Shown: one piece after another, positions 16,584 to 59,854 of the stretch
How positions within the stretch are numbered: the first letter of the stretch is position 1
Layout: every line of letters begins with the position of its first letter
Source of the DNA: Verrucomicrobiota bacterium
GTDB taxonomy: Bacteria; Verrucomicrobiota; Verrucomicrobiia; Limisphaerales; JAYTXL01
DNA length: 60,535 nt
Direction: 5' to 3'
Assembly: GCA_043742955.1 (NCBI GenBank)
Contig: JAYTXL010000446.1
Span: 1-60,535, forward strand
Translations under genes and position numbers: made by a program
Notes under the pieces: generated by a model
What the model saw: only the letters and a program-made list of their open reading frames with translations
What the model was told of the DNA's origin: nothing
Databases searched by the model: none

Positions 16584-16762
16584 TCGTATCTGCTCGAATT
16601 GATGTCGGATATTTGTCCTCTTGCTCCGCCAATGCGCAATCTAAATGTGGGGAACTTGCGTCAACACCTTCCGCAGTCAGCCCGGCCGCGCCCACCGCAA
16701 ACTACGAATGGTGGGCGACGGCGCTTTCCCTTGCCGCCCGCGCGGCGGATCTCCGGCGCGCT

Positions 16763-43666: not shown

Positions 43667-44926
43667 ATGCTTTACGAAGGCTGGCGGAGGATCGCCCGGG
43701 AACGGGGCGCTGAAATTGCCGTGCGCGATCATGCCCCGGCCCGTAGCTGGACGTTCGCCCAACTGGCGGCGGAAGCGGAGCAAGACGTTGGGCCCGTTCC
43801 CGCGATCACCTTTCCCCAGGGGCGTTCCGCGGACTTCGTGGTCGGCGTGCTCCGCGCCTGGCGACAGCACGCGGTGATTTGTCCGCTCGAACTTGGCCAG
43901 GCCGCACCCGTATTGGCCACCACCCCGCCGGAGTGTGTCCTTCTGAAAACCACCTCCGCCTCGACCGCCGGGCCGCGCTTGGTCGCTGTCACCGCCGCGC
44001 AACTCGCCGCCGACGCCGAAAACATCGTGGCCACCATGGGGCTGCGCCGGGACTGGCCGAACCTCGGCGTGATTTCGCTCGCGCATTCCTATGGCTTTTC
44101 AAATCTGGTTTTGCCGCTGGTGCTCCACGGCATTCCGTTGACCTTGGCCGCGTCGCCGTTGCCGGAATCGATCCGGCAGGCAGCAGCGGGCGAAAAGGCC
44201 ATCACCCTTCCAGCGGTGCCTGCGCTGTGGCGGGCGTGGCTGGAAGCGAACGCGATTCCGCCCAACGTCCAACTCGCAATTTCAGCCGGCGCTCCCCTGC
44301 CCTTGCCACTGGAGCAGGCGATCTTCGCCGCGGCCGGATTGAAGATTCACAATTTTCTGGGCGCCAGCGAATGCGGCGGCATTGCCTACGATGCCTCGGC
44401 CAACCCGCGCGCTGACGCGGCGTGCGTGGGCACAGCCTTGCGGAATGTCCGGCTGGCCCTGGGCGGCGATGGCTGCCTGGAGGTGCGCGGCCCCGCGGTG
44501 GCGCAGTCGTACTGGCCGGAAGCGGACGGGCGGTTGGGTGAAGGCTGTTTTCAAACCAGTGACCTGGTTGAATTCAAGGATGGCCTCGTCTTCTTGCGTG
44601 GGCGCACGGGCGACCAGATCAATGTCGCCGGCCGCAAGCTCTTGCCGGAGGTGGTTGAGCGCGCGTTGCTGACCCATCCTGGAGTGCGCGACTGCCTCGT
44701 TTTCGGCGCGCCCAGTCCGGATCGCGAACGCTCCGAGAGCATCGTCGCGTGCGTGGTGGGGAAGTCCGCCGCGACCGGCGAGGACTTGAAGCGGCATCTT
44801 CTCGATCGCCTCCCGGCCTGGCAAGTCCCGCGGGATTGGTGGTTCGTGGAGACGCTGGAAGTGAATCAACGCGGCAAATTGTCGCGCGCCGAGTGGCGAC
44901 GGAAATATGTGAGCCGGGCTGCGTGA
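43667..44926 (+). CDS. AMP-dependent synthetase/ligase (short adenylate-forming enzyme)
   Basis: KTTSASTAGPRLV (degenerate AMP P-loop), SHSYGF, QTSDLV, GRTGDQINVAGRKL and QRGKLSR blocks. Confidence 0.8.
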   Translation: MLYEGWRRIARERGAEIAVRDHAPARSWTFAQLAAEAEQDVGPVPAITFPQGRSADFVVGVLRAWRQHAVICPLELGQAAPVLATTPPECVLLKTTSASTAGPRLVAVTAAQLAADAENIVATMGLRRDWPNLGVISLAHSYGFSNLVLPLVLHGIPLTLAASPLPESIRQAAAGEKAITLPAVPALWRAWLEANAIPPNVQLAISAGAPLPLPLEQAIFAAAGLKIHNFLGASECGGIAYDASANPRADAACVGTALRNVRLALGGDGCLEVRGPAVAQSYWPEADGRLGEGCFQTSDLVEFKDGLVFLRGRTGDQINVAGRKLLPEVVERALLTHPGVRDCLVFGAPSPDRERSESIVACVVGKSAATGEDLKRHLLDRLPAWQVPRDWWFVETLEVNQRGKLSRAEWRRKYVSRAA

Positions 44927-45398
44927 CGGAGGTTCGATCAGCAAGCGAGGCGGAACCAGATTCGGCAATACCCGCATGGGCTGCGCATCTCAATTTCTTG
45001 CGGGGGCAGGGCAAACTGGAGGCTTGCCAGCGATTAGCCGGGGATGAGCGAGTTGGCGAGCGACATCCCCGGTCAAAACGCCGCTTTCCGACACCCTGGC
45101 GGGGTGGCAGACGAACGCACTACGGAGTGCTGTCACCGTAGGATTCTTCCTCCATGACTGGCACCGCTTTCAGGGTGCAATTCCTCGGACCGCTGATCCG
45201 GGGGTATCGCTGGGCTCAACCCCCGGCTAATGGCTGGCAACCTTTCAGGTTGGCCTGGAACAGTACCTGCAAGAAATTGAGATGCACCCGCCCGCCCGCA
45301 TGATTTGCGCGCGAAAAGATTCGTCAGCGGAAATTCCCCCCGCTAGAATCGTGCGTGGTCCCGATGCGAATATCATCAACAACCGAACGACTGAATTG

Positions 45399-48272
45399 AT
45401 GAATCTCACCGCGTACCACGCCAAGTATTTCGCCCACGAGCTGACCAAGCGATGCCCGTCCGATAGCATCCAGAAGCTCGCAGCCACCCTCGCCGATGCC
45501 CAAGTTGACCTCAATCCCCACCAGATTGATGCCGCGCTTTTCGCGTTCCGTTCGCCGTTGTCCAAGGGCGCAATCCTCGCCGATGAAGTCGGACTCGGTA
45601 AAACCATTGAGGCGGGGATTTTACTATCGCAGAAATGGGCCGAGCGGAAGCGGAAACTGCTGGTCATCGTTCCCGCCAATTTGCGCAAGCAGTGGAATCA
45701 GGAATTGTCCGACAAGTTTTTCCTGCCATCGGTCATCCTCGAAATGCGCACGTTCAACGAGCAAATCAAGCAGGGCAACTTGAACCCGTTTGAACGGGAT
45801 GAAATCGTCATCTGCTCCTACCACTTCGCCCGCAATAAGGACGCCTACATCCGCCAGGTGAACTGGCACCTTGTGGTGGTTGATGAAGCGCACCGCCTGC
45901 GAAATGTTTACAAGCCGGCCAACCGAATTGCCAACGCCATCAAGAGCGCCATTGCACCCTTCCCGAAAGTGTTGCTGACCGCAACGCCGCTGCAAAACTC
46001 GCTCTTGGAATTATTCGGGTTGGTCAGTGTCGTTGACGATTACACCTTCGGCGACCTCAAAAGTTTCAAGGCACAGTTCGCAAATCTCACGACGGAAAAG
46101 GATTTCGCAGAGTTGAAGGCGCGGTTGAAACCCGTTTGCCAGCGCACGCTGCGGCGGCAGGTGCTCGAATACGTCCCCTACACGAATCGCAAGGCCATCG
46201 TGCAGGAGTTCTTCCCCACGCCCGAAGAACAGACACTTTACGACCTCGTTTCCGATTATTTGCAGCGGCCCAATCTGTTTGCGTTGCCCGCCAGCCAGCG
46301 CCAACTGATGACGCTCATTTTGCGGAAACTGCTTGCGTCATCCACCTTCGCCATCTCTGCCACGCTAGGCGCGCTGTCCACGAAACTCGAAACGGTCGCC
46401 GCCGCGCAAGCCCCGGTGGAAATCGTCCCGGAAGAAATCGCGCCCGATTACGAAACGCTGAACGAAACCGAAGACGAGTGGACGAACGAAGACGCGCCGG
46501 AAAAGGAAGACCGGCGCTACACGCCCGAAGAATTGCAGCAGATGAGCGCGGAGGTTGCCGACCTAAAACAATTCCAGTCGCTCGCCCAATCCATCATCAA
46601 GAATTCCAAAGGCGAGGTGTTGCTCACCGCGTTGAAACGCGGCTTTGTCGCCGCGACCGAGAAGGGCGCGCAGAAGAAGGCCATCATTTTTACGGAGTCC
46701 AAGCGCACCCAGGAATACTTGCGCGGCCTCCTTGAGCAGACCGAATACGCCGGGAAAGTCGTGTTGTTCAACGGCTCGAACAGCGACGCGAAATCGAAAG
46801 AGATTTACCGCGAATGGCTCAAAAGGCACGAAGGCACTGACCGCGTGACCGGCTCGCCGAGCGCGGACATGCGGGCCGCGCTCGTCGATTATTTCCGCGA
46901 CGAAGCCATTGTGATGATTGCCACCGAAGCCGCCGCCGAAGGCATCAATCTTCAATTTTGCTCGCTCGTGTTGAACTACGATTTGCCGTGGAATCCGCAG
47001 CGCATCGAGCAACGCATCGGGCGCTGCCACCGTTACGGCCAGAAATGCGATGTGGTAGTGGTGAATTTTTTGAACAAGGCCAACGCCGCCGACGTTCGCA
47101 TTTACCAGTTGCTCGACGAGAAATTCAAACTGTTCAGCGGCGTCTTCGGCGCGAGCGATGAAGTGCTGGGCGCGATTGAATCCGGCGTCGATTTTGAAAA
47201 GCGCATCATTCAGATTTACCAGACCTGCCGGACACCGGAGCAAATCGAATTCAATTTCAACGCGCTGCAAAAGGAATTGGAAACGCAGATTGACGAGAAG
47301 ATTCAACAGACCCGGCAAAAACTTCTCGAAAACTTTGACGAAGAAGTTCAGGAAAAATTGCGAGTCAAAGACCGTGAGAGCAGCGATTACCTCAGCAAGT
47401 TTGAAAACTGGCTCTGGCAACTCACTCACTATTACTTGCAGGACTACGCCGAATTTGCAGATGACGGAAAAAGTTTCGTTCTGGCCCGCAATCCGTTCCC
47501 GCAGGAAAACATTCATCCCGGCCCCTACCGCAGCGGCAAGAACGTGGAGGACGCCAACCTTTACCGCATCGGCCACCCGCTGGCGAAACGCATCATCGAA
47601 AAGTGCAAGGCGCTCACGCCAGCACCCGCCGAACTGGTGTTCAAATACACAGGCGCGGGCAAAACTATTTCCATTCTTGAACCGCTGGTCGGCAAAAGCG
47701 GCTGGCTTCGCCTCGCGAACATGACCGTTTCCTCGTTCGACACGGAAGATTGGCTGCTCTTTGCGGGCGTCGCAGATGACAACCAGGCGCTTCATCCCGA
47801 TCAGTGCCAGCGGTTGTTTTCGCTAAACGCGAAAGAATCGCCGCAATTGAGCTTGGCCCCGGATGACAAGGTGCATGATCGAATGGATGCGCAGTGCGTG
47901 CAGCAGCGCCAAGACGTTCTCTTCCGCTTGAGCACGAAAAACGCCGAGTTCTTCGAGCTGGAGATGGAAAAGCTCGAAGGCTGGGCAGGCGACCTCAAGG
48001 AAAGCTTGGAGCATGAGTTGAAGGAGATTGACCGCGAAATCAAGGACACGAAACGCGAGGCGCAGCTTGCCGCCAGCCTCGAAACGAAAGTCGCGCACCA
48101 CAAACGTATCAAGGAATTGGAAGCCCGCCGCGCCGAGAAACGGCGCGGATTGTTTGAGGCGCAGGATGCCGTGGACACACGCAAAGACGGGCTTTTGACG
48201 GAAATCGAAGCGAGGTTGAAACAGGGCGTTCAAGAGGACGCCTTATTCACAATACGATGGCGGGTTGAATAA
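45399..48272 (+). CDS. SNF2-family helicase/translocase with ~380-aa uncharacterised C-terminal extension ending in a coiled coil
   Basis: Motif I LADEVGLGKTIEAG, II VVVDEAHRLRN, III LLTATPLQNS, V ATEAAAEGINLQ, VI NPQRIEQRIGRCHRYGQ. Trimmed to ATG 45399. Confidence 0.85.
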   Translation: MNLTAYHAKYFAHELTKRCPSDSIQKLAATLADAQVDLNPHQIDAALFAFRSPLSKGAILADEVGLGKTIEAGILLSQKWAERKRKLLVIVPANLRKQWNQELSDKFFLPSVILEMRTFNEQIKQGNLNPFERDEIVICSYHFARNKDAYIRQVNWHLVVVDEAHRLRNVYKPANRIANAIKSAIAPFPKVLLTATPLQNSLLELFGLVSVVDDYTFGDLKSFKAQFANLTTEKDFAELKARLKPVCQRTLRRQVLEYVPYTNRKAIVQEFFPTPEEQTLYDLVSDYLQRPNLFALPASQRQLMTLILRKLLASSTFAISATLGALSTKLETVAAAQAPVEIVPEEIAPDYETLNETEDEWTNEDAPEKEDRRYTPEELQQMSAEVADLKQFQSLAQSIIKNSKGEVLLTALKRGFVAATEKGAQKKAIIFTESKRTQEYLRGLLEQTEYAGKVVLFNGSNSDAKSKEIYREWLKRHEGTDRVTGSPSADMRAALVDYFRDEAIVMIATEAAAEGINLQFCSLVLNYDLPWNPQRIEQRIGRCHRYGQKCDVVVVNFLNKANAADVRIYQLLDEKFKLFSGVFGASDEVLGAIESGVDFEKRIIQIYQTCRTPEQIEFNFNALQKELETQIDEKIQQTRQKLLENFDEEVQEKLRVKDRESSDYLSKFENWLWQLTHYYLQDYAEFADDGKSFVLARNPFPQENIHPGPYRSGKNVEDANLYRIGHPLAKRIIEKCKALTPAPAELVFKYTGAGKTISILEPLVGKSGWLRLANMTVSSFDTEDWLLFAGVADDNQALHPDQCQRLFSLNAKESPQLSLAPDDKVHDRMDAQCVQQRQDVLFRLSTKNAEFFELEMEKLEGWAGDLKESLEHELKEIDREIKDTKREAQLAASLETKVAHHKRIKELEARRAEKRRGLFEAQDAVDTRKDGLLTEIEARLKQGVQEDALFTIRWRVE

Positions 48273-48347
48273 GCTGGAGCCGAGCTTTTGGAAGCTGGCA
48301 GGATTCACCCCGTTGCTTTAATCTGACGCACAAATCGAAATACCGAC

Positions 48348-49550
48348 ATGAAATTTCCACCCATCACCAAAGTTGTTATCAAGCGCTTTCGTAGTTTCCC
48401 GTCGGCAACACTCACTTTCGACAACCCGCTTTTCATTATCGGCCGCAACGGGTCTGGAAAAAGTAATCTTTCCGACGCGTTTAGCCTGGTCGCCGAAGCG
48501 ATGGTTTCGCCTTTGCAGGCGGTCTTTGACCGCCGGGGCGGACTTGCCTCGGTTCGCAATCGGAGTTCGGTACAAAGTGCGCCGCCCAACATGGGCATTG
48601 CCTTTGAGTTTGGTGAAATTAACGGGATCGAAGGCGGACGTTTTGCCTTTGAAGTCAAGGCTCTCCCCAACTACGGCTACCGCATTGTCCATGAGCAGTG
48701 TCTGGTTCGGAAAAGTGACGGCAGCCGCTGTTGGTTTGACCGCACCGATAAATGGAAGAGCAACGTCGAAGGTCTGACCCCCGCTTTGGAGCCGTCGGCA
48801 CTGGCGTTGCCACTGGTCGGCGGTGATGAGCGGTTTGCCCATGTCTTCAAAGTTCTGGGAGCCATGCGCGTCTATTCCATTGAACCTTCCAAACTTCGGG
48901 AGATGCAGGACCCGGACAGTGGCGTGTCCCTCAAACCCGATGGCAGCAACGCCGCCAGCGTGCTGCAGGAATTGTTTCGCGGCAATGCGGCCATCGCGAC
49001 CAAGACCGAGATCAATCGCATTCTCGAGTCCATTGTTCCCGCCACCAAAACCGTGACCCCGAAAAAACACGGCAACAAACTTTCCATGAGTTTTTCGCAG
49101 GAATGGGGTGAAAAAAAGCGACTGACCTTCGATGCCTTCAATATGTCCGACGGCACGCTCCGTTCACTCGGCCTGATTATGGCCGTGTTTCAGAAGCCCA
49201 GTCCCAGCATCCTCGTCATCGAGGAACCCGAGGCCACGATTCATCCCGGGGCGCTCGGCGCGGTACTTGACCTCATCCGTAAGGCGGCCAAAACCATGCA
49301 GGTCGTCGTCACCACCCACAGCCCGGAATTACTGGACGCGAAATGGATTACCGACGCCAATCTCCGCATTGTTTCCTGGCAGGAAGGCGCATCCCACCTT
49401 TTGCCGCCCTCCGAAGCCACCCGGCAGGCCATGCGTCAGCATCTCATGGGCGCAGGCGAATTGCTTCGTTCCAACGCCCTTCATGCCGACGAACTTTTCA
49501 CTGGCGCTGACGACCTGCGTAACGGGAACCTCTTTGAAAACCTCACATGA
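48348..49550 (+). CDS. ABC/SMC-type AAA ATPase (AAA_21/AAA_15-like)
   Basis: Walker A GRNGSGKSN, signature-like MSDGTLRSLG, Walker B ILVIEEPEATIHP, H-loop VVVTTHSPELL. Confidence 0.85.
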   Translation: MKFPPITKVVIKRFRSFPSATLTFDNPLFIIGRNGSGKSNLSDAFSLVAEAMVSPLQAVFDRRGGLASVRNRSSVQSAPPNMGIAFEFGEINGIEGGRFAFEVKALPNYGYRIVHEQCLVRKSDGSRCWFDRTDKWKSNVEGLTPALEPSALALPLVGGDERFAHVFKVLGAMRVYSIEPSKLREMQDPDSGVSLKPDGSNAASVLQELFRGNAAIATKTEINRILESIVPATKTVTPKKHGNKLSMSFSQEWGEKKRLTFDAFNMSDGTLRSLGLIMAVFQKPSPSILVIEEPEATIHPGALGAVLDLIRKAAKTMQVVVTTHSPELLDAKWITDANLRIVSWQEGASHLLPPSEATRQAMRQHLMGAGELLRSNALHADELFTGADDLRNGNLFENLT

Positions 49551-49702
49551 AGGTGTATCCGATTGTCGAAGGCCACGGCGAAGTTGAGGCCGCGCCCGTC
49601 CTGCTGCGGCGTCTGCTCGCGGAAGCGCGGTGCCAGCACATCGGCGTGGGGCGTCCAATCCGGCGCACCCAATCCCATGGCAGGCCGAATGATTTCCCAC
49701 GC

Positions 49703-49770
49703 ATGACGAAGAAACAAAAACTGGAACTGACCTGGATTGGGAAGGAGAACCGGCCGGGTCGTATCACGCG
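49703..49770 (+). repeat. Decayed direct duplicate of the mod gene 5' end
   Basis: 49703-49755 matches 49891-49943 at 51/53 nt. 49758-49770 matches 49983-49995 at 13/13 nt. Relative to mod, 37 nt are missing between the two blocks. Confidence 0.85.
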
Positions 49771-49795
49771 GCACACCGCGTTACCCGGAGAGACA

Positions 49796-49881
49796 ACCGC
49801 GAATGAACGCGAAGGGACGCGAATGAAGACGGGGGTGGGGCTGCTTTCGGAAATTCGCGTTCATTGGCGTCCATTCGCGGT
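49796..49881. repeat. REP-like long hairpin built from inverted triple decamer arrays (29-nt arms, 25/29 paired, 28-nt loop)
   Basis: Left arm is ACCGCGAATGAACGCGAAGGGACGCGAAT. Right arm is ATTCGCGTTCATTGGCGTCCATTCGCGGT. Aligned by eye. Confidence 0.75.
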
Positions 49882-49890
49882 TAAAATCCG

Positions 49891-51492
49891 ATGACGAAGA
49901 AACAAAAACTGGAATTGACGTGGATTGGGAAGGAGAACCGGCCCAAGCTGGAGCCGCGCATTTTGCTGGAAGACCCGGCGAAGTCGTATCACGCGCAGCA
50001 TCGCGTGACGGGGCAGGACATTTTCGACAACAAACTCATCTTTGGCGACAATTTGCTCGCGCTCAAGGCCCTCGAACAGGACTTCTTCGGCAAGATCAAG
50101 TGCATCTTCATTGACCCGCCGTACAACACCGGCAGCGCGTTCGAGCATTACGACGATGGAGTGGAACATTCATTGTGGCTTTCTTTGATGCGCGAGCGTT
50201 TGGAAATCCTCAACCGGCTGCTCTCTGCGGATGGTTCGCTCTGGATCACTATCGACGACAATGAGGCCCACTATCTGAAAGTCCTTTGTGACGAGGTAGT
50301 GGGTCGACCACAGTTCGTCGCCAATATCGTCTGGCAAAAACGCACCTCACGGGAGAATCGGGCGGCTATAGGATCTGCGCACGACCATGTCCTTCTCTAC
50401 GCAAAGCGCGGGGCAATTGGGTGGAAAGACTCTCGAAACCCACTTCCACCAAATGACAGTGGATACTCAAATCCTGATAAGGATACGCGCGGGCTTTGGC
50501 GGTCAATCCCTTTCAGCGCGCAAGGCTTTAGGAAGAATCAGATGTATAAAATCCAAACTCCGTCTGGCGGTGAAGTCGAGCCGCCCAAGGGCCGTTGTTG
50601 GGCGGCGACCGAGCCGGAGTATTTGAAGCTCCTCGCCGAAAAGCGGGTTTACTTTCCAAATGACGGCACGGGAAAGCCACGCATCAAACAGTTCAAAGGT
50701 GAAGAGAAGGGATTAGTGCCAATGACGTGGTGGGATGCTGCACTTGCGGGGGACAACGAAGAGGCCAAGAAAGAAATTCTGAACTTGTTTCCAAACGACG
50801 AAGCGTTTGGGACACCAAAACCAGAGCGACTTCTTAATCACATTATTCAGATTGCAACAAATCCTGGTGATTGGGTTCTCGATTCATTCGCCGGTTCTGG
50901 CACGACTGGCGCGGTGGCTCACAAGATGGGACGGCGCTGGATCATGGTGGAGTTGGGTGAGCACTGCCACACGCACATCATTCCACGCCTCAAGAAGGTG
51001 GTTGATGGTGCAGACCCCGGTGGCATCACAGGAGCAGTTGGCTGGAAAGGCGGCGGTGGTTTCCGCTACTACCGACTCGCGCCCTCGCTGCTGAAAACGG
51101 ACAAGTGGGGCAATCTCATTATCAACAAAGACTTCAATCCCGACATGCTGGCCGAGGCCGTCTGCAAGCTGGAAGGCTACACCTATGCGCCGAGCGACAC
51201 GCTCTACTGGCAGCACGGCCATTCGTCGGAAAAGAGCTTCATCTACGTCACCACGCAACATTTGACCCGTGAGCAGTTGACGCAGTTGAACGATGAAGTC
51301 GGGGCGGGGCGCTCTCTCCTGATTTGCTGCTCCGCCTTCCGGGGCAAGCCGGAGAACAACCCGCATCTTGAATTGAAAAAGATTCCCAAGGCCGTCCTCT
51401 CTAAATGCGAGTGGAGCCACGACGATTACAGCCTGAAAATTGAGAACCTGCCCAAAGCTCCGCCGCCAAAGGGTCAACAGCAACTTTTGTAA
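49891..51492 (+). CDS. mod: Type III restriction-modification methyltransferase (Mod, beta-class DPPY)
   Basis: Motif IV IFIDPPYNTG precedes motif I VLDSFAGSGTTGAVA. Size and domain order are typical of type III Mod. Confidence 0.9.
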   Translation: MTKKQKLELTWIGKENRPKLEPRILLEDPAKSYHAQHRVTGQDIFDNKLIFGDNLLALKALEQDFFGKIKCIFIDPPYNTGSAFEHYDDGVEHSLWLSLMRERLEILNRLLSADGSLWITIDDNEAHYLKVLCDEVVGRPQFVANIVWQKRTSRENRAAIGSAHDHVLLYAKRGAIGWKDSRNPLPPNDSGYSNPDKDTRGLWRSIPFSAQGFRKNQMYKIQTPSGGEVEPPKGRCWAATEPEYLKLLAEKRVYFPNDGTGKPRIKQFKGEEKGLVPMTWWDAALAGDNEEAKKEILNLFPNDEAFGTPKPERLLNHIIQIATNPGDWVLDSFAGSGTTGAVAHKMGRRWIMVELGEHCHTHIIPRLKKVVDGADPGGITGAVGWKGGGGFRYYRLAPSLLKTDKWGNLIINKDFNPDMLAEAVCKLEGYTYAPSDTLYWQHGHSSEKSFIYVTTQHLTREQLTQLNDEVGAGRSLLICCSAFRGKPENNPHLELKKIPKAVLSKCEWSHDDYSLKIENLPKAPPPKGQQQLL

Positions 51493-51503
51493 CGAGCAAA
51501 ATC

Positions 51504-52559
51504 ATGGAACAGCCGCCACAGCCAGGTTCAGAGATCGTCCTATACCAGACGGACGACGGGCGCACGCGCCTTGTGGTGAAGCTGGAAAACAATACCGTCT
51601 GGCTTTCGCTCAACCAGATCGCCGAGCTTTTCCAGCGGGACAAATCGGTCATTTCCAAGCACATCAAAAACGTCTTTGACGAACAGGAATTGAACGCGGA
51701 GGCAACTGTTGCAAAATTTGCAACAGTTCAAAAGGAAGGCCAGCGCGAGGTTTCCCGCGAAATTGAGTTTTACAACCTTGAGGTCATCATCGCCGTTGGC
51801 TACCGGGTAAAATCGCAGCGCGGCACGCAGTTCCGCCAGTGGGCGACGGCGCGGTTGAAGGAATATCTAGTCAAGGGCTTCGCGATGGATGACGAGCGCT
51901 TGAAAAATCCTCCGGGCAAAGGGCAGCAGGATTATTTTGATGAACTGCTGGAACGCATCCGGGACATCCGCTCTTCCGAACGGCGCTTTTACCAGAAGGT
52001 GCTGGATATTTACGCGACCAGCGTGGACTACGACCCGGGCGCAGAGGCGACGCAAAAATTCTTCGCCACGGTGCAGAACAAGATTCATTGGGCGACGCAC
52101 GGTCACACGGCGGCGGAGGTGATTCACCAGCGCGCCGATGCGACCAAGCCGTTCATGGGCCTGCAAACCACGCGTCCGGGCGGGATCGTGCGGCGGGACG
52201 ATGTGGCGGTCGCCAAGAACTACCTGACCGAGGACGAACTGCAGGTGCTCAACCGCATCGTCAACCTCTACATCGAGTATGCGGAATTGCAGGCGCTGGA
52301 GCGGCGGCCCATGACCATGTGGGACTGGATTGCGAAATTGGACGAGTTTCTAAAAATCTCCGGTCGCAGGTTGATGGATCACGCGGGCGAGGTTTCCGCT
52401 GAACTGGCCCGGGAGAAGGCGGGGCGGGAATACGAACGCTACCGCGCTTTTCTCGATACGCAGCCGCGGCTGGTGGATGAAGACTTCGAGAACGCGGCGA
52501 AGAAGTTGAAGAAACTGTCCGCACCCCGGTCGCCCAAACCGAGGAGACGTGATCCATGA
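51504..52559 (+). CDS. rhuM: RhuM-family protein
   Basis: IVLYQTDDGRTRLVVKLENNTVWLSLNQIAELFQRDKSVISKHIKNVF, AVGYRVKSQRGTQFRQWAT and YFDELLERIRDIRSSERRFYQKV are hallmark RhuM blocks. Confidence 0.85.
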   Translation: MEQPPQPGSEIVLYQTDDGRTRLVVKLENNTVWLSLNQIAELFQRDKSVISKHIKNVFDEQELNAEATVAKFATVQKEGQREVSREIEFYNLEVIIAVGYRVKSQRGTQFRQWATARLKEYLVKGFAMDDERLKNPPGKGQQDYFDELLERIRDIRSSERRFYQKVLDIYATSVDYDPGAEATQKFFATVQNKIHWATHGHTAAEVIHQRADATKPFMGLQTTRPGGIVRRDDVAVAKNYLTEDELQVLNRIVNLYIEYAELQALERRPMTMWDWIAKLDEFLKISGRRLMDHAGEVSAELAREKAGREYERYRAFLDTQPRLVDEDFENAAKKLKKLSAPRSPKPRRRDP

Positions 52560-55228
52560 ACCCGCACGTCAACGCCATTGCCGGACGCCTGAGCCTGCGG
52601 CAGCCGCAACGAGACTCCTTGGCAATCCTCGACCGGATTACGGAGATTGTGCCGCCGAGCAAATCGCCGGACGTAGCCGCTGCGCTCGCCATCATCAAAT
52701 CCGAATTCCCGAAGGTCACGGACTTCGAGCGCGAATTCCCCTCGATTTGCTTTGCGCTCGCCACGGGCGTCGGCAAGACGCGGCTCATGGGCGCGTTCAT
52801 CTCCTACCTGCATCTGGCGAAGGGCATAAACAACTTTTTCGTGCTCGCGCCGAACCTGACGATTTACAACAAGCTGATTGCGGACTTCACGCCGAACACG
52901 CCGAAATACGTCTTCAAGGGCATCGCGGAGTTCGCCACAGACGCACCCGAAATCATCACGGGCGACACCTACGACAAGCGCAGTTTGTTCGGCGACATTT
53001 ACCGCGTCCGCATCAACATTTTCAACATCTCGAAAATCAACTCGGAAGTGCGCGGCGGCAACATGCCACGCATCAAGCGGCTTTCGGAATACATCGGTCA
53101 GAGCTACTTCGATTACCTCGCCGGTTTGCCGGACTTGGTGTTGCTCATGGACGAATCGCACCGTTATCGGGCGTCCGCAGGCATCCGCGCCATCAATGAA
53201 TTGAAGCCCATGATTGGCTTGGAATTGACGGCCACGCCTTTTGTGGAAACCGCCCGAGGCGCAACGCCATTTAACAATGTTGTTTATGATTATCCGCTGG
53301 CTCGGGCAATGGCGGACGGTTTTGTAAAAGAGCCAGCCGTGGTGACGCAGAAGAATTTTGATGCAAGCCAGTTCACGCGGGAACAGTTGGAGCGGATAAA
53401 ATTGGAGGACGGCATCCGAATGCACGAAGCCACCAAAGTCGAATTGGAGACTTACGCCCGGCAGCACGAATGCCGCCAGGTGAAGCCGTTCGTGCTCGTA
53501 ATCGCGCGCGACACGACGCACGCCAAGGATTTGCTGGAATTGATTCAGTCCGAGAAGTTTTTCGCGGGCCGCTACAAAGACCGCGTTATCCAAGTGGATT
53601 CCAGTCAGACCGGCAAAGAGGAAGAATTGATGATTGAGAAGTTGCTCAAGGTGGAAGACCCCGCCGAGCCGACGGAAATCGTCATCCACGTCAACATGCT
53701 CAAGGAAGGCTGGGACGTGAACAATCTCTACACAATTGTTCCGCTCCGCGCGGCCAATGCGCGAATCCTGATTGAGCAATCCATCGGGCGCGGTTTGCGT
53801 CTTCCCTACGGCGTCCGCACCGGCGTTACGGCAGTGGACCGGCTGAACATCGTCGCGCACGACCGGTTTCAGGAAATCGTGGACGAAGCGAACAAGCCAG
53901 ATTCCGCCGTGCGGCTCACCCAGGTCATCCTTGACCCGGCCACCGATTTGCAGCCGACCAAGACCGTCATCGCGCAGCCGACCCTGATGGCGAAGCTGAC
54001 CGCCACAACCGAGACGGCGACTGCCGCCGCCACGCCCGGAAAAGCCGCCGAACCTTTGTTCGCGACGGAGCAGGAACGGCAGATTGCGGCCATCGCGGTC
54101 AAAGTGATTCAGCAGCACGAGACGTTGCCGCAGGTGAATTATTTGCAGAAGGCCGAGGTGCAGGCGGCCATCATCAAGGAAGTGGCGGCGACTTACACCG
54201 CGCCCGCGCAGACGGAACTGACCGGAATCATCGCCAAGCCGGACATTGCGGCGGTTGTCGCCAAGGCGACCAAGCTGGTTATTGACCAGACAATCAACAT
54301 TCCGCGCATTGTCGTTGTGCCCACCGGCGACGTGACGAGCGGGTTTAATGCGTTCACGCTCGATTGTGCGTCTGTTCGTTTGCAGCCTGTGAGCCGTGAA
54401 TTGCTGATTCAGCATTTGCGGACGGCCAAGCAGGAATTCTTGCAGAACGTGAACGAGCAGTCGAAAGAAGCACGACCAGAAGATTACTTGGTGCGGGCGC
54501 TGATTGACTTCGATGACATTTCCTACGACGACCACGCGGATTTGCTCTACGAGTTGTCCGGCCAATTGGTGAAACACCTGCGCAGCTACCTTTCCGAACC
54601 CGACACGGTGAACGTCCTGCAATACCACCAGCAACAACTTGCGGCGCTCATCCACTCGCAGATGCAGTTGCCGGAGCATCGTTGGGAAAAAGCGACCGGC
54701 TACAAGGCAACGGTGAGCAAAGGCTTTTCCGCCCTGAAAGACAACGCCTACACCGCCGCCGCCACGGACGACATCAGGCCGTTCCGCATGACGGTTTCTG
54801 ACCCGACGAACATCAAGCGTTACTTGTTTGGTGGTTTCGCCAAATGCCTTTACGACAAGCAACGCTTCGACGTGGACACGGAGCGGCGCTTCGCCGTGAT
54901 TTTGGAAGACGACGGCGAGGTTTTGAAATGGTTCAAACCGGCGCGCGGACAATTTCAGATTTATTACAACAAGGAGCAGGCTTACGAACCGGACTTTGTG
55001 GCTGAAACCAAGAACCAGCTTTTCCTGTGCGAACCGAAACGCGCCGACCAGATGCAGAATCCCGAAGTCATTGCAAAAAGGGCCGCGGCCTCCGAATGGT
55101 GCAAGCACGCCACCGACCACGCGCAACAGCATGGCGGCAAGAAGTGGAATTACCTGCTCATTCCGCACGACGCCGTCACCGGCAACATGACCCTGGAAGG
55201 GCTGGCTTCGCGTTTTGGGGTGGCGTGA
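52556..55228 (+). CDS. res: Type III restriction endonuclease (Res: DEAH helicase plus C-terminal PD-ExK nuclease)
   Basis: Walker A FALATGVGKTRLM, LLMDESHRY, HVNMLKEGWDVNNL, SIGRGLRL, and C-terminal YEPDFVAETKNQLFLCEPK. The start overlaps the rhuM stop (ATGA). Confidence 0.9.
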   Translation: MNPHVNAIAGRLSLRQPQRDSLAILDRITEIVPPSKSPDVAAALAIIKSEFPKVTDFEREFPSICFALATGVGKTRLMGAFISYLHLAKGINNFFVLAPNLTIYNKLIADFTPNTPKYVFKGIAEFATDAPEIITGDTYDKRSLFGDIYRVRINIFNISKINSEVRGGNMPRIKRLSEYIGQSYFDYLAGLPDLVLLMDESHRYRASAGIRAINELKPMIGLELTATPFVETARGATPFNNVVYDYPLARAMADGFVKEPAVVTQKNFDASQFTREQLERIKLEDGIRMHEATKVELETYARQHECRQVKPFVLVIARDTTHAKDLLELIQSEKFFAGRYKDRVIQVDSSQTGKEEELMIEKLLKVEDPAEPTEIVIHVNMLKEGWDVNNLYTIVPLRAANARILIEQSIGRGLRLPYGVRTGVTAVDRLNIVAHDRFQEIVDEANKPDSAVRLTQVILDPATDLQPTKTVIAQPTLMAKLTATTETATAAATPGKAAEPLFATEQERQIAAIAVKVIQQHETLPQVNYLQKAEVQAAIIKEVAATYTAPAQTELTGIIAKPDIAAVVAKATKLVIDQTINIPRIVVVPTGDVTSGFNAFTLDCASVRLQPVSRELLIQHLRTAKQEFLQNVNEQSKEARPEDYLVRALIDFDDISYDDHADLLYELSGQLVKHLRSYLSEPDTVNVLQYHQQQLAALIHSQMQLPEHRWEKATGYKATVSKGFSALKDNAYTAAATDDIRPFRMTVSDPTNIKRYLFGGFAKCLYDKQRFDVDTERRFAVILEDDGEVLKWFKPARGQFQIYYNKEQAYEPDFVAETKNQLFLCEPKRADQMQNPEVIAKRAAASEWCKHATDHAQQHGGKKWNYLLIPHDAVTGNMTLEGLASRFGVA

Positions 55229-55308
55229 AAAGTGCGAAGACTATCCGCCTGCAATTGTCGATTTGATCCCAGGCAATGAGCTATGCCATATGGCAAAGTC
55301 TCGTTATT

Positions 55309-55764
55309 TCAATCGCAAGGTATTGTGGTTTGGCTCACCTCCCCGCTCAACGTCAGTTCCGCCTGCAGCACCGTGCGCCCGTTCACCGCTGCCGTCGCGC
55401 TGGCTTGGATCAAGTTACCGAGCCGACCGGTCACGCGTGCCTCCAGCCGGATGACTTCGCCGGGTTGCGCAGTTCCGAGAATTTTTGCTCCGCGCAATGC
55501 GGTGAGTTTCAAGCCGGCCAGCGGAGCCAGGCCCGGATCGCTTTGGGCGACGACACCCGCGAGTTGCGCCGCCGCTTCCAGCAAGAGCACACCGGGAAAC
55601 AGGGGCTGGCCAGGAAAGTGGCCGGCCAGAAATATTTCATCCCCACGCACGAGGTACTCCCCCACCCCGGATTTGCCCGGCACCAATTCCACCAGGCGGT
55701 CAACAAACCGAAACTCCGGACCGTGTGGCAGGTGCTGGAGCGCGGACGCGAACGAGTCGCTCAT
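55309..55764 (-). CDS. Hotdog-fold 3-hydroxyacyl-ACP dehydratase (FabZ/FabA-like, ApeI-type)
   Basis: LPHGPEFRFVDR and HFPGQPLFPGVLLLEAAAQ motifs. Confidence 0.75.
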   Translation of the reverse strand: MSDSFASALQHLPHGPEFRFVDRLVELVPGKSGVGEYLVRGDEIFLAGHFPGQPLFPGVLLLEAAAQLAGVVAQSDPGLAPLAGLKLTALRGAKILGTAQPGEVIRLEARVTGRLGNLIQASATAAVNGRTVLQAELTLSGEVSQTTIPCD

Positions 55765-56558
55765 AACCCGCCTTTTTTCAGCGGCTCGACGATTTTGATC
55801 TCCGGACCCAGCTTCGGATTGAACACCTGCTCATCGAGTTTCAAATTGAATTGCGAATTCGTGAAATCATTTCGCATCGACGAGCCGTCGGCAAAGACGA
55901 GTTCCGTCGCGCGCAAGGACGAGTCATTGGCCATGAACGTAATCCTGATTTGTGGCATCAGGCGTCGCGCCGCGGCGGACTTGGGCTGGAGCGCCACTAC
56001 GTACCCTTCGTTTGCCTCATTCACGGAGAGGATTTTGAAGCGCGACTCCAGGTCGGCACGGCTGCGCGGAAATCCGGCTTCGAACAATGCCAGCGTGTCC
56101 TTCCATGGCCCCGCCGCATCGCCCGTGAGCGGATATCGTTCCGCGCGCTTAAGCCGCGGATAGATGACGAGCATTTGTTCGGGCTGCCGCACCGCGATGG
56201 TTTGCACCGGGTTGCCCAACTCCCAACGGAAACGGTTGGGCGCCGTGAACCAGACATGGCCCGGGGCGGTGAGCGGCTGGGCGAGCGCCTTGAGCGTGCG
56301 GGTCTGGGTGAACCCGGCGGACCAGGAATGCAAATTGGTTTGGGCATTCAGCCACGCTGTGAGCACCGCATTGGTATCGCTGGCGAGACCGGTCTCCAGC
56401 GCCCCAAACAACAGTGCGATCGCCGCAAAACTCTTGTAGCCGCAACCTTCAGGTTGCGCCGGGTGGAACCGCGGCTGTGAACGCAACCTGAAGGTTGCGG
56501 CTACGGTTGTGGCTACGGTTGCGGCGACTTCGGCCAGATGGGAACGAAATGATACCAT
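55761..56558 (-). CDS. LolA-like lipoprotein-carrier family protein (start uncertain)
   Basis: GFTQTRTLKALAQPLTAPGHVWFTAPNRFRWEL and the overall length resemble LolA-like proteins of aryl-polyene-type clusters. The signal-peptide-like KSFAAIALLFGALETGLA is preceded only by codons derived from REP DNA. Confidence 0.65.
   Translation of the reverse strand: MVSFRSHLAEVAATVATTVAATFRLRSQPRFHPAQPEGCGYKSFAAIALLFGALETGLASDTNAVLTAWLNAQTNLHSWSAGFTQTRTLKALAQPLTAPGHVWFTAPNRFRWELGNPVQTIAVRQPEQMLVIYPRLKRAERYPLTGDAAGPWKDTLALFEAGFPRSRADLESRFKILSVNEANEGYVVALQPKSAAARRLMPQIRITFMANDSSLRATELVFADGSSMRNDFTNSQFNLKLDEQVFNPKLGPEIKIVEPLKKGGL
56431..56522. repeat. REP cluster: two inverted copies of the CGCAACCTGAAGGTTGCGGCTAC unit (23/23 complementary) plus a 2 x 12-bp tandem GGCTACGGTTGY
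   Basis: Arm 56436-56458 is the exact reverse complement of 56482-56504. The tandem 12-mers are at 56499-56522. Same family as 347-374. Confidence 0.85.
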
Positions 56559-59500
56559 TGGTCGGGATGTTGCCGGATGGCGGGCTCAAACGCACGCATG
56601 ATTTGCTGGGTCAATTCCTGCCGGGCTTCGCGGGTGCCCAGCGCCATCCGGTCGTAGGTGATTTCCGGGAGTATTTGCGCCGCGTAGCCATGATCGCCGC
56701 GTGGCAAGACGACTGGAAGCAGAATGCAGCCCGAGGCGCGGGCCAGCTCCGCCGCGGCGATGGAGGCTAGGAACGGTTGGCGGAACAACTCAACTTCAAT
56801 CGCACTGCCCGCCGGCGGACGGTCCACGAGCAACGCCACCGTCGCCCCGGATTCCAAGCGCTTGATGATTTCGATGAACGCAAAGGCATCTTGTCCCACC
56901 ACCAACGTTTCAATCCCCCAGCGTGCGCGCGCGGCCTGACGCATTTCGGTAAAGCCATCCCCTGGTTCCGCCTGCGTCAACACCAGCAACTTCGCGCCGC
57001 GCGCCGCCAGCAACGGGGCGCCGAATTCCCAGTTACCCAGATGCGGAGTCACCAACAAGATCCCACGACCTTTCGTTTGAGCCGACTTAAAATGCTCCCA
57101 GCCATTGAATTCGGTGAACATCTCCGCCACAGACCGGCCCGCCTCGTAGCGCCAGAGATCGCCGAGCTTGCGGCCAAATTGGCGGAATAGTTTCCGCGTC
57201 ATCCGTTCGGCGGCGGCACGGTCACCGTTCAGGACCGGCAAAAGATTTTGCACCACGATCCCGCGGCGCCGGGAGCCAAAGCACCAATAGAGCAAGCCCA
57301 GCGCGCCGGAAATCTGCTCACACCAACCCGCCGGCAGCACGCGCGCCAGGGCGACGCCAATTTTCCAGAGGCCACCCCGGTAGAGCGCGGACGGTCGGCC
57401 GTCCGAACCAGTCGATCCTGAATGCGCCCGTGGCGGCGAGGCCACGGCCCGCCACCACATCGGCAGCAGGTAAATCGAAATTAACATGTTGAAGCCGACG
57501 CCGACCGCACAGACTTCACCCAGACTCGCCATGCCCGCGTTGCCCGAGAAATAGAGCGAACCAAAGCCGGCCATGGCGGTTCCGCCACAGAGGAGCAGCG
57601 CGCGTCCCACCGAACGATGTGCCGCCGCTTCATTGCCATGGTGTCGGCGCAAGGCGAGCTGCATGAAAATGCTATAATCGACACCGGTGCCGAGCATGAG
57701 CGGCAGCGCCATCAGGTTCATCAAATTCCACGACCAGCCGGCCATTCGCATCACCGCCAGGAGGCACAAGCCGCTGGCCAAAAGCACCGCGAGGCTCAGG
57801 AGAATTTCCGTCGGGCGCCGGAAAGCGAGCCAGAGGGAAAGCAAAACCAGAAACACCATCGGCAACACCACCCGCCACAAGTTGGCCTGAACTCGTTCGA
57901 GAATCGCGTCGCCCAGCAAGTCCCAGCCGGACACCAAAAATCCGGCGCGCGACAAATCGCCGGACCAGCGCGCGATGGTTTGCTGCGTCACCGGGGCGTT
58001 GGTGCCGGGATAAACAAAGCCGACCGCGAACAACTCGCCGCGCGGACGTGCCACCATCTTTTCCAGAATCCACTGGCTCATTTGGTTCGTGGGCCAATAG
58101 GTGTTCGTGGAGGCGAGGGCGTTTTCCCAGGCATCGAGCAGCCCCTGGGTGAGGCCGAACGCGTTGGTGTTGAATCCGCCTTGCTGCAAATCCACCAGGA
58201 AAGTTGAGCGTTGCTGGGTGAGTTGCCGGGCGGTGGCGCGGTTGGCGGTTTGAAAATCGGGCCGGGGCCAGAGCGCGGAAGGCAATGTGAAACCGGCAAT
58301 CCATTGGTGGGAGCGGGCGTTTTCGAGGATCTCGGCAGCCTGGTCCAGGCGGCGGGCAATCTCGGTTTCGTTGCTCCCCCGCGTGACCAGCCACAGGGGT
58401 TCGCGGTTTTGCGTGAGCTGCAATTTAATTTCATCCAGCGCGGCGTACGCCAGGCTGCCACGCGGCCGCAGTGCATTGGGCGACCGGTCGAGGCGCGGCG
58501 CTCCCTGGCAAAGGAGCAGCAGGCCGGCGAGGCCGAACGACAGGATCGAAATCATGGAAATTATCCTGCGGCGGCGGGCGTTCTTTGTTTCCGCAGCCGG
58601 CTCGACCGGTTCTTCCGGGATGGATCGCGGCCAGGTTCCGGCGGCGATCTGTTCTTGCCGGCGTTTCAGTCGGTCGCGAAACAGCGGTGGCAAAAACGCG
58701 AACAACATTACGAACGCAGACAGCGCCACCCCCAACGCCACCAGCGATCCCAGCTGGGCCAAGCCCGGCAGGCCGGCCAGATTGAGCACGAGAAAGGCGC
58801 TGATGGTGGTCACTGCCGCCCAAAAAATGCTGGGACCAATCGCCCCGCGAATTTCTGGAATGATCGCTTCGGGCGAGGCCAACGCCTCCTGATAATGCAC
58901 CACGCCATAATCCACTGCCAGGCCGAGCAGGATCGCGGCGAAACCAAGGCTCACCACATTGATCGAGTCGAAGACCAGCGCCCCGAGGGCCAGCGTGCCG
59001 GCCAGCACCAGCGCCAGCAGGGTCAACAGCCAAAGCATCGGTTTCCAACGACGATGCGCCAGCCAAAACAACACCGCGATGACCGCGGCGGTAAAAACCA
59101 CCGACTCGATCATGTCCCGTTCCATCCCCCCGGCAATTTCCGCGACAAAGAGCGGTCGACCCGTGTAATGAATTGCAATGGCGCGATGATCGCCACCCCA
59201 GCGATCCACGACGCCCTTCACCTCGCTCAACCACGCGACACATTCGCGGTAGCTCGACAGATCCGTCGCGGCTTGCACGAAAACAATCCGAAACCGCCCG
59301 TCCGCCGAGGCGAACAACTCCTGTCCCTGCCCCAGCGCCGGCGCTCCGGTGGCCGCCGAGTCGGGCAAACGCGTCAGGCCAAAGGGATCATAACTGAGAC
59401 GGGCGATGTCGGCCGGCGACATCGACGTGGTGAGTTGTTCGCGGGTGGACGCGAGGGTGGCCGGGAGATTCGCCGGGGCCAGGCGGTTGGTCAGTGCCCC

Positions 59501-59854
59501 AAAAACGGACGGGGGCTGATTCAGCCAGAGGTGCGCGATCAGTTCGGCGGCCTGACCGGGATGTTCGAGCCAAGGCGGCTGCCAGGTGACTTGTTTGATC
59601 AGCGACTTTCGCTCTGCCAAAGCCAGGGCAAGTTCGCGCGCCGCAGCCTCCGTGGTCTCCGCGTCTGGCCCGCGCACCGTGAGAATCAATTCGCCAGCGT
59701 TGGCGAAATTCTGTTGATAGAGTTTCAATCCCTGCACGGCGGGCACATCGCCGGGCAAAAGATTCAACACCTCGACGTCGAAACGAAGCCTTGCCAGTCC
59801 GGCAATCAGCGGCAGCAGCAACAACAGCCAGAGCCAGCGGCGGGAGAATCTCAT
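56513..59854 (-). CDS. Fusion protein: MMPL/RND-type exporter plus C-terminal LpxL/HtrB-family lipid acyltransferase
   Basis: The first ~800 aa have two 6-TM bundles with large periplasmic loops (predicted-exporter/MMPL architecture). The last ~300 aa carry LVTPHLGNWEFG (the HX4D/E acyltransferase motif) and LVDRPP. Confidence 0.8.
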   Translation of the reverse strand: MRFSRRWLWLLLLLPLIAGLARLRFDVEVLNLLPGDVPAVQGLKLYQQNFANAGELILTVRGPDAETTEAAARELALALAERKSLIKQVTWQPPWLEHPGQAAELIAHLWLNQPPSVFGALTNRLAPANLPATLASTREQLTTSMSPADIARLSYDPFGLTRLPDSAATGAPALGQGQELFASADGRFRIVFVQAATDLSSYRECVAWLSEVKGVVDRWGGDHRAIAIHYTGRPLFVAEIAGGMERDMIESVVFTAAVIAVLFWLAHRRWKPMLWLLTLLALVLAGTLALGALVFDSINVVSLGFAAILLGLAVDYGVVHYQEALASPEAIIPEIRGAIGPSIFWAAVTTISAFLVLNLAGLPGLAQLGSLVALGVALSAFVMLFAFLPPLFRDRLKRRQEQIAAGTWPRSIPEEPVEPAAETKNARRRRIISMISILSFGLAGLLLLCQGAPRLDRSPNALRPRGSLAYAALDEIKLQLTQNREPLWLVTRGSNETEIARRLDQAAEILENARSHQWIAGFTLPSALWPRPDFQTANRATARQLTQQRSTFLVDLQQGGFNTNAFGLTQGLLDAWENALASTNTYWPTNQMSQWILEKMVARPRGELFAVGFVYPGTNAPVTQQTIARWSGDLSRAGFLVSGWDLLGDAILERVQANLWRVVLPMVFLVLLSLWLAFRRPTEILLSLAVLLASGLCLLAVMRMAGWSWNLMNLMALPLMLGTGVDYSIFMQLALRRHHGNEAAAHRSVGRALLLCGGTAMAGFGSLYFSGNAGMASLGEVCAVGVGFNMLISIYLLPMWWRAVASPPRAHSGSTGSDGRPSALYRGGLWKIGVALARVLPAGWCEQISGALGLLYWCFGSRRRGIVVQNLLPVLNGDRAAAERMTRKLFRQFGRKLGDLWRYEAGRSVAEMFTEFNGWEHFKSAQTKGRGILLVTPHLGNWEFGAPLLAARGAKLLVLTQAEPGDGFTEMRQAARARWGIETLVVGQDAFAFIEIIKRLESGATVALLVDRPPAGSAIEVELFRQPFLASIAAAELARASGCILLPVVLPRGDHGYAAQILPEITYDRMALGTREARQELTQQIMRAFEPAIRQHPDQWYHFVPIWPKSPQP

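Follow-up and report, generated by a model that had tools for sequence, protein, structure and literature searches.

Gene content of the locus

The window analysed here, a 60,535-nucleotide stretch of Verrucomicrobiota contig JAYTXL010000446.1, carries an inserted island in which six co-directional open reading frames (ORFs) encode an SNF2 ATPase, an ABC/SMC-type ATPase, a short DUF4276-like product, a type III methyltransferase (Mod), a RhuM-family protein and a type III restriction enzyme (Res). All six lie on the plus strand. A preliminary description of this DNA had given them as co-directional with junctions of 75, –4, –4, 11 and –4 bp, which the coordinates match exactly (Table 1), and its domain calls for the six ORFs were borne out by Pfam and PADLOC profile searches. 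Its choice of position 45399 as the start of a 957-aa SNF2 protein also agrees with the homologues, which are 956–960 aa long and open with the same motif. Existing hidden Markov model libraries would be expected to give each part of the array its own label: RM type III, PDC-S05, partial HEC-01 and, for SNF2, an unassigned DrmD-like helicase. All three core proteins, SNF2, Mod and Res, retain intact catalytic motifs in the window.

Table 1. Features of the island and their positions in the window
Feature	Positions	Strand	Remarks
SNF2 ORF	45282 or 45399 to 48272	+	957 aa from 45399; first core gene
ABC/SMC-type ATPase (PADLOC HEC-01A)	48348–49550	+	Embedded cargo, gene intact
Short ORF	49547–49894	+	115 codons
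DUF4276 (TOPRIM-like, HEC-01B) remnant	49547–49702	+	Deletion junction 49677/49678
Extra copy of mod 5′ end	49703–49795	+	Direct repeats D1 and D2
88-nt hairpin	49795–49882	+	Inverted repeat I2, directly 5′ of mod start codon
Type III Mod	49891–51492	+	533 aa, beta-class N6/N4 methyltransferase; second core gene
RhuM-family protein	51504–52559	+	PADLOC candidate PDC-S05; cargo between Mod and Res
Type III Res	52556–55228	+	890 aa, SF2 ATPase and C-terminal PD-(D/E)xK nuclease; third core gene
Inserted island, ~10.4 kb	44927–55308		Between stop codons of two convergent housekeeping genes
300-nt foldback	44985–45285		Inverted repeats I1 and I4; left island edge, upstream of SNF2

Type III restriction–modification (R-M) systems comprise two genes by definition. 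Mod hemimethylates a short asymmetric site, and Mod2Res1 uses ATP to leave the site and slide along the DNA, which it cuts, if unmodified, once two sites in inverse orientation have communicated. As in EcoP15I and EcoP1I, the window encodes a beta-class Mod with DPPY ahead of FxGxG (IDPPYNTG near residue 75, FAGSGTTG near residue 325), followed by a Res that joins an SF2 ATPase to a C-terminal PD-(D/E)xK nuclease. The PADLOC type III models span both proteins end to end (MTase_III, 1e-205; REase_III, 1e-210), and the corresponding Pfam matches are N6_N4_Mtase (9e-45) and ResIII (2e-21). The centre of Mod (residues ~172–310) differs from locus to locus, as would fit an exchangeable target-recognition domain like the variable region of the classical enzymes. 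In Res, helicase motifs I, II, III and VI (ATGVGKT, DE(S/A)H, TATP and GRGLRLP) and the C-terminal PD...ExK motif are conserved in eight homologues from four phyla. The unit nevertheless differs from its type III counterparts: the window and every relative carry an SNF2 ATPase gene upstream of mod, the gene junctions hold embedded defence cargo, and Res is distant from its classical counterpart, scoring 36 bits with NCBIfam PRK15483 (cut-off 564).

The SNF2 protein matches SNF2-rel_dom (2e-34) and Helicase_C (4e-20), and its motifs I, II, III and VI are near-invariant across 28 homologues. The family is large; the best 120 matches are 66–90% identical over the full length. Among PADLOC models, a DrmD-like profile scores 1e-204, and the HmaA model (7e-51) covers the helicase core only. 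The NCBIfam model DISARM_DrmD_b (683 bits, cut-off 950) is likewise confined to the helicase core, at model positions 22–656 of 868, and DISARM_DrmD scores 247 against a cut-off of 610. Modelling of the C-terminal 358 residues gave a small beta domain and a long antiparallel coiled coil (pLDDT 82) with no fold match in the PDB at E ≤ 0.001. A search of this region for a nuclease or reader domain found no Pfam domain and no PDB fold match; the beta domain modelled alone was too poor for use (pLDDT 63).

These DrmD matches invite comparison with DISARM class 1 (DrmD, DrmMI and DrmABC), which also places an SNF2 helicase and an adenine methylase at the head of its operon, and in which joint deletion of drmD and drmMI lowered protection against one phage. 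Membership of DISARM was rejected, however: DrmA, DrmB (DUF1998) and DrmC (PLD), the last two already noted as missing in the preliminary description, are absent from the island, from its flanking ORFs and from the ten largest other ORFs of the window, and SNF2 falls below both DrmD cut-offs. In addition, the methylase is of the N6_N4_Mtase rather than the Pfam 13659 type, the C-terminal region of SNF2 differs, and a type III Res takes the place of effector.

SNF2, Mod and Res are linked across phyla

Scans of species-representative genomes and metagenomes yielded 95 SNF2-anchored loci (numbered with the prefix L), and linkage was counted in the 39 in which the SNF2 gene is complete at its 3′ end and followed by 8 kb or more of DNA. 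A Mod homologue was present in all 39 and Res in 38; in the remaining locus, 7.7 kb of cargo intervenes and Res runs off the contig end. Gene order and orientation are fixed across at least six phyla. Plasmid loci were found by tblastn searches with SNF2 and with Res, both proteins occurring in the same records, and all ten inspected (from Salmonella, Klebsiella, Ketogulonicigenium, Sphingopyxis, Paracoccus, Roseomonas, Aeromonas, Rhizobium, Cupriavidus and one planctomycete, i.e. Alpha-, Beta- and Gammaproteobacteria and Planctomycetota) encode SNF2, then a methyltransferase, then a DEAD/DEAH protein (Res), with no system name in their annotation. On a Deinococcus plasmid, the SNF2 and Res matches lie 4.5 kb apart. 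Where cargo is missing the genes draw together, with 24-bp gaps in L015 and L021. In Ketogulonicigenium and Paracoccus all three genes are contiguous, some with overlapping stop and start codons; cargo-free triads of this kind lie in Ketogulonicigenium robustum NZ_CP019939.1 (8524–15920) and on Paracoccus marcusii pCP157_04. A fourth conserved gene was sought on both sides: upstream of SNF2 the largest cluster occurs in 6 of 46 loci, and downstream of Res there is none. Judged from these neighbourhoods, no genes other than SNF2, Mod and Res are conserved across the loci.

Divergence of the two motor proteins runs in parallel, with a Spearman correlation of 0.82 between SNF2 and Res identity (n = 35). 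A sub-clade of SNF2 proteins at 67–74% identity is accompanied by another family of Mod (641 aa) and Res (979 aa) in unchanged order, so the SNF2 partner is not bound to a single Mod/Res lineage. In this sub-clade (L017, L043–L045, L049, L050, L053, L057 and L073) the gap often holds a ~795-aa AAA_13-type ABC ATPase.

The preliminary description had offered two readings, a hybrid in which one Mod serves two ATP-driven effectors or three stacked modules, and the linkage data bear directly on the second. If Mod and Res were an autonomous type III system, SNF2 could be a one-gene defence in its own right, or else a DISARM DrmD orphan travelling alongside, as HEC-01 and RhuM do. The two-gene definition of type III R-M is compatible with this, as are the tendency of defence genes to cluster and co-mobilise, the DrmD models as the strongest matches of SNF2, and the ability of some SNF2 proteins (e.g. 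HmaA, with its nuclease domain) to defend alone. Against it stand the fixed order and orientation in 39 of 39 scanned and 10 of 10 plasmid loci, over at least six phyla, where all else varies, and the stop/start overlaps of cargo-free loci. Moreover, this SNF2 has no nuclease domain detectable by Pfam or in the modelled C-terminal fold, and the missing DrmA, DrmB and DrmC and the two missed DrmD cut-offs described above argue against an orphan DISARM component. We therefore regard independent stacking as improbable.

A regulatory role is a further alternative, in which SNF2 would act like RapA on RNA polymerase or on its own operon, for example to time restriction relative to methylation after transfer. 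The nearest solved structures (PDB) are indeed RapA, and one plasmid copy is annotated rapA. Control of the operon may also matter, since a small Xis/AlpA-like helix–turn–helix (HTH) gene overlaps the SNF2 start in the proteobacterial and planctomycete plasmid versions, with a WYL-domain gene in its place in Aeromonas (L104 3233–3433; L105 8769–9014; L113 7808–8035; L114 7792–7992; L115 7783–7992; L110 243–1154). Neither the window nor the loci of Verrucomicrobiota and Bacteroidota have the small HTH gene. Set against this, the helicase core of SNF2 begins at about residue 30, leaving no room for the N-terminal domains of RapA, the NCBIfam RapA model scores 175 against a cut-off of 576, and the SNF2 partners of DISARM, BREX type 3 and ARMADA are treated as system components. 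A regulator is, on this evidence, very unlikely.

In L001, a second SNF2 gene of the same family (15305–17131; 55% identity) begins ~1 kb past Res, which suggests two systems in tandem.

Variable cargo occupies the gene junctions

Between the SNF2 stop and the start of mod lie 10 to 7686 bp, and in 11 of 57 loci this gap is 60 bp or less. The intervening ORFs are co-directional and varied: they include GmrSD, NYN, a PLD nuclease, HNH, Schlafen/AlbA_2, Bro-N, an HTH protein with an M78 peptidase, Abi_2, AbiJ, AAA_13-type ATPases with partners, AAA_21 with DUF4276, DUF262 and RhuM. At least ten kinds of cargo thus occupy the SNF2–Mod slot, the ABC ATPase being one of them. From this gene content, the SNF2–Mod junction and, less often, the Mod–Res junction is a hotspot that takes up varied defence cargo.

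The ATPase in the window matches AAA_21 (1.5e-30) as well as AAA_15 and SMC_N, retains its Walker A, signature, Walker B and H-loop motifs, and aligns at residues 4–382 with positions 7–384 of 399 in the PADLOC HEC-01A model (1.5e-104). HEC-01 is a candidate defence cassette, composed of an ABC ATPase and a TOPRIM-like partner, that was described embedded in Hma and gave no protection in one published assay (bioRxiv 10.1101/2024.01.29.577857). Because HEC-01 is so constituted, the ATPase and the short ORF that follows are assigned to HEC-01 cargo and not to HmaC; the full-length HEC-01A match, the HEC-01B N-terminus in the short ORF and the 4-bp stop/start overlap seen in intact pairs are all shared. 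The closest ATPase relatives (94% and 87% identity) belong to stand-alone ATPase–DUF4276 pairs with the same 4-bp overlap; the genes around these pairs encode glycosidases and dehydrogenases, and none encodes SNF2, Mod or Res. Embedded pairs also exist: plasmid pE31A of Aeromonas media carries an intact HEC-01 pair in exactly the slot used in the window, and L097–L100 carry two pairs in tandem between SNF2 and Mod/Res. In L097 (2906–16390), the gap additionally contains a group II intron reverse transcriptase, the Mod call is short (241 aa), and integrase genes flank both sides. The preliminary description had proposed a neighbourhood survey for linkage to Mod-type methylases; such linkage holds for SNF2 in all 39 loci, and the closest relatives of the ATPase are the stand-alone pairs.

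The partner gene, by comparison, is a ruin. The preliminary description had called it a DUF4276-like stub of ~50 codons; the likeness is real but confined to the first 43–44 codons, and the ORF is 115 codons long. It matches HEC-01B (1.6e-10) over residues 1–43 only and has no Pfam DUF4276 match. The remnant is ~93% identical to the N-terminus of an intact partner; intact partners are 184–216 aa long. In a blastn alignment with L101, window positions 48348–49677 correspond to L101 7665–8994, and positions 49678–49755 to L101 9476–9554. The resulting 481-bp jump in L101 marks an internal deletion that joined 44 codons to the last ~25 nt of the gene, and it upholds the earlier claim that the nuclease partner of the ATPase is destroyed. 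Some 160 codons were lost, including the region of the acidic DxD-type motif. Past the DUF4276 codons, the short ORF takes in those final 25 nt, then duplicated sequence from the first ~130 nt of mod, and lastly a hairpin. With its nuclease partner gone, the ABC ATPase is probably non-functional as a defence. Its dN/dS against the stand-alone copy in L096 is 0.05; either the loss of DUF4276 is recent or the ATPase retains some use.

These observations also bear on the first of the two earlier readings, in which a helicase–methylase–ATPase triad, proposed as a candidate system in the PADLOC study, shares its methylase with Res. That system is Hma, described as a helicase, an m5C-type methylase and an ATPase (PMC8565338), and later recognised as a DUF499-centred, BREX-related system (PMC12839542). 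Its mechanism has been worked out as MANTIS (Gao_RL), in which the methylase is loaded by a DUF499 AAA+ ATPase and cleavage is the task of a helicase-nuclease (bioRxiv 10.64898/2026.09.23.753747). Hma is the original host of HEC cargo, and Hma/MANTIS resembles the locus in being methylation-based with an SNF2-type motor and a second ATPase; like type III systems, MANTIS furthermore hemimethylates asymmetric sites, with a preference for inverted pairs of them. Membership was nonetheless rejected because all three families differ: the DUF499 ATPase, nuclease-bearing helicase and other-family methylase of Hma/MANTIS are not present in the window, where the ATPase is of the ABC type (HEC-01A), the methylase is a type III Mod and no nuclease domain is detectable in SNF2.

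An Hma-like arrangement might still be imagined in which SNF2, the ABC ATPase, Mod and Res all cooperate. The genes are co-directional and tightly spaced, the combination of SNF2, AAA_21 ATPase, DUF4276, Mod and Res recurs in L020/L031, L097–L100 and Aeromonas pE31A, and the MANTIS precedent shows that methylase loading can require an ATPase. However, the nearest relatives of the ATPase manage without SNF2, Mod and Res, most SNF2–Mod–Res loci contain other cargo or none, and in the window the partner of the ATPase is destroyed, so that such cooperation is barely credible. What survives of the earlier proposal is that SNF2 and Res share one Mod in a conserved co-directional unit; the ABC ATPase drops out of it, and we infer that it takes no part in the core.

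The second passenger, RhuM, matches Virulence_RhuM (1e-114, model positions 1–246 of 252) and PDC-S05 (1e-143), and is a candidate for a defence function. It lies between Mod and Res in only four scanned loci (among them L001, L079 and L084), between SNF2 and Mod in L010, and is missing from most loci. In type I R-M systems, too, RhuM genes have been reported in between the core genes (PMC9881135).

This nesting of co-oriented, unrelated defence genes in a methylation-based system corresponds to the 'guilt by embedding' pattern of Payne et al. 2024, who described embedded genes in Hma, BREX, DISARM and type I R-M (bioRxiv 10.1101/2024.01.29.577857), and part of the cargo is the same (GmrSD, ABC ATPase with TOPRIM, NYN and RhuM-like genes). 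A type III-like triad is not among the hosts in that study, which mentions type III only for DRT. The extension of such hotspots to type III-like hosts would make the slot a place to look for new defence genes.

Scars around the cassettes

The extra copy of the mod 5′ end reproduces mod nt 1–53 at 96% identity and then nt 81–130 at 72%. Similar copies of the mod start lie behind cassettes in L003 (16017–16064), L020/L031 (L020 14822–14875), L032/L085 (L032 16310–16348) and L097/L098 (L097 7529–7583), and also behind the stand-alone pairs of L101/L103 (L101 9476–9655). Furthermore, the final 14 nt of the SNF2 gene in the window, together with the intergenic region, recur in the stand-alone cassette of L096. 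The scars suggest an exchange of cassettes through recombination at conserved host-gene ends, and they fit a derivation of stand-alone HEC-01 copies from embedded ones. In a test for selection at the DNA level, conservation at third codon positions of the mod 5′ end is only slightly raised (0.65–0.73 versus ~0.6), so this end is conserved mostly at the protein level.

Several smaller features accompany these repeats. The cargo ORF that comes next in L020 and L003 seems to start at or within the copied mod start. The hairpin between the extra copy and the real mod gene has 30-nt arms that are 87% complementary (fold –65.8 kcal/mol, z = –5.2) and has no match elsewhere in the window or in related loci. 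Directly after the SNF2 stop (48271–48301), 28 nt resemble mod nt 55–82, with a score reached by 0.1% of shuffles; this resemblance was not seen in other loci. Finally, an 83-aa ORF downstream of the stand-alone HEC-01 pair and mod 5′ remnant (L101 9717–9968; L103 5510–5761) matches the C-terminal helical domain of type I HsdR (T1RH-like_C) and is, by that match, more R-M debris around a HEC-01 cassette.

A putative role for SNF2 in type III restriction

Because SNF2, Mod and Res are linked throughout the loci compared and the HEC-01 ATPase is a self-contained cassette, the locus is better described as a three-gene core with two embedded passengers than as a four-part hybrid or three stacked modules. 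Our preferred reading, which we hold to be probable, is a mobile SNF2–Mod–Res R-M unit, that is, a type III system always accompanied by a RapA/DrmD-like SNF2 translocase, into which two independent passengers, HEC-01 and RhuM, have been embedded. Given the invariable linkage, and the recurrence of SNF2/methylase pairing in DISARM class 1, BREX type 3 and ARMADA, we infer that the SNF2 motor is a functional partner of Mod–Res and not a mere neighbour. The type III behaviour of Mod–Res is assumed from family membership and established enzymology: Mod would hemimethylate a short asymmetric site, and Mod2Res1 would leave the site with ATP, slide, and cut unmodified DNA upon communication of two inversely oriented sites. 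SNF2 would then be a double-stranded DNA translocase that helps Mod–Res on invading DNA; it could strip proteins off the DNA, or it could aid loading and communication over long distances.

Several considerations weigh against this interpretation. The adjacency of SNF2 to Mod–Res could also reflect co-mobilisation, and the loci that establish it are partly non-independent, with near-duplicates in L020/L031, L032/L085, L036/L037 and L014/L063. Canonical type III enzymes work with two genes, and accessory genes go unmentioned in a review of them (PMC3874151); SNF2 may therefore be dispensable. The lack of an informative fold match for its C-terminal region means that no interaction surface or activity can be named. 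Scans for promoters (5 promoter-like sites versus 3.3 expected) and terminators (11 terminator-like sites versus 16.7 expected) were at chance level. In addition, the strong purifying selection on the ATPase may mean either that this protein still does something or that the deletion in its partner is very recent.

A bolder version is possible, and we advance it tentatively: SNF2–Mod–Res could constitute a distinct, unnamed class of ATP-dependent restriction in which SNF2 is an obligatory third subunit or partner, and in which the SNF2–mod junction serves specifically for acquisition, with cassettes swapped by recombination at the conserved mod 5′ end and repeated copies of the mod start left behind. 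An obligatory SNF2 might serve methylation, loading of Res, or a relaxing of the strict two-site rule of type III enzymes.

Type III R-M is seen as a two-gene system, and a large, widely transferred clade that never occurs without SNF2 suggests an unrecognised third component or a new motor coupling. The latter would place two DNA motors on one methylase, a theme that is emerging for DISARM, BREX type 3, ARMADA and MANTIS. Searches of the literature, including type III R-M and defence reviews (some subscription papers, such as the original DISARM paper, were out of reach), found no account of a unit of SNF2 with type III Mod and Res, and an SNF2 partner of type III restriction appears to be undescribed so far. 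The question is directly testable, since the system resides on plasmids of culturable Salmonella, Klebsiella, Aeromonas, Paracoccus and Ketogulonicigenium.

Insertion site and minor features of the island

The island is flanked by an AMP-dependent ligase gene on the left (43667–44926, plus strand) and an ApeI-like FabA dehydratase gene on the right (55309–55764, minus strand). In the related genomes L111 and L112, the orthologous genes are convergent within the same synteny block and merely 6–45 bp apart, and homology to these genomes ends at 44926 or 44908 and restarts at ~55336. By this comparison, the whole 10.4-kb island is an insertion between two convergent housekeeping genes. GC content is 0.53–0.58 within the island versus 0.60–0.65 outside. 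No integrase, transposase or other recombinase gene was found in the island, and Rfam has no match anywhere in it. Elsewhere the window encodes housekeeping functions, among them RecG, LepA, SerRS, glycogen synthase and signal peptidase. The interrupted gene block (window 43667–44926 and 55309–59854) is conserved in L111 and L112 and is lipid- or aryl-polyene-like, comprising a methyltransferase, DUF8321/8322, the AMP-ligase, the ApeI-like FabA, LolA and an MMPL+LpxL-like fusion.

The foldback at the left island edge consists of nested near-perfect inverted repeats, with a predicted RNA fold of –178.7 kcal/mol (z = –10.4). It has no second copy in the window, no Rfam match and no counterpart in related loci, and could be a MITE-like element or part of the mobile unit.

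A 909-codon open frame runs antisense to res (52439–55168, minus strand). The window's copy of res contains no TTA, CTA or TCA codons, against ~8 expected from neighbouring genes, and homologous res genes contain 1–15 each. Since the antisense frame is not conserved among these homologues, it is best regarded as an artefact.

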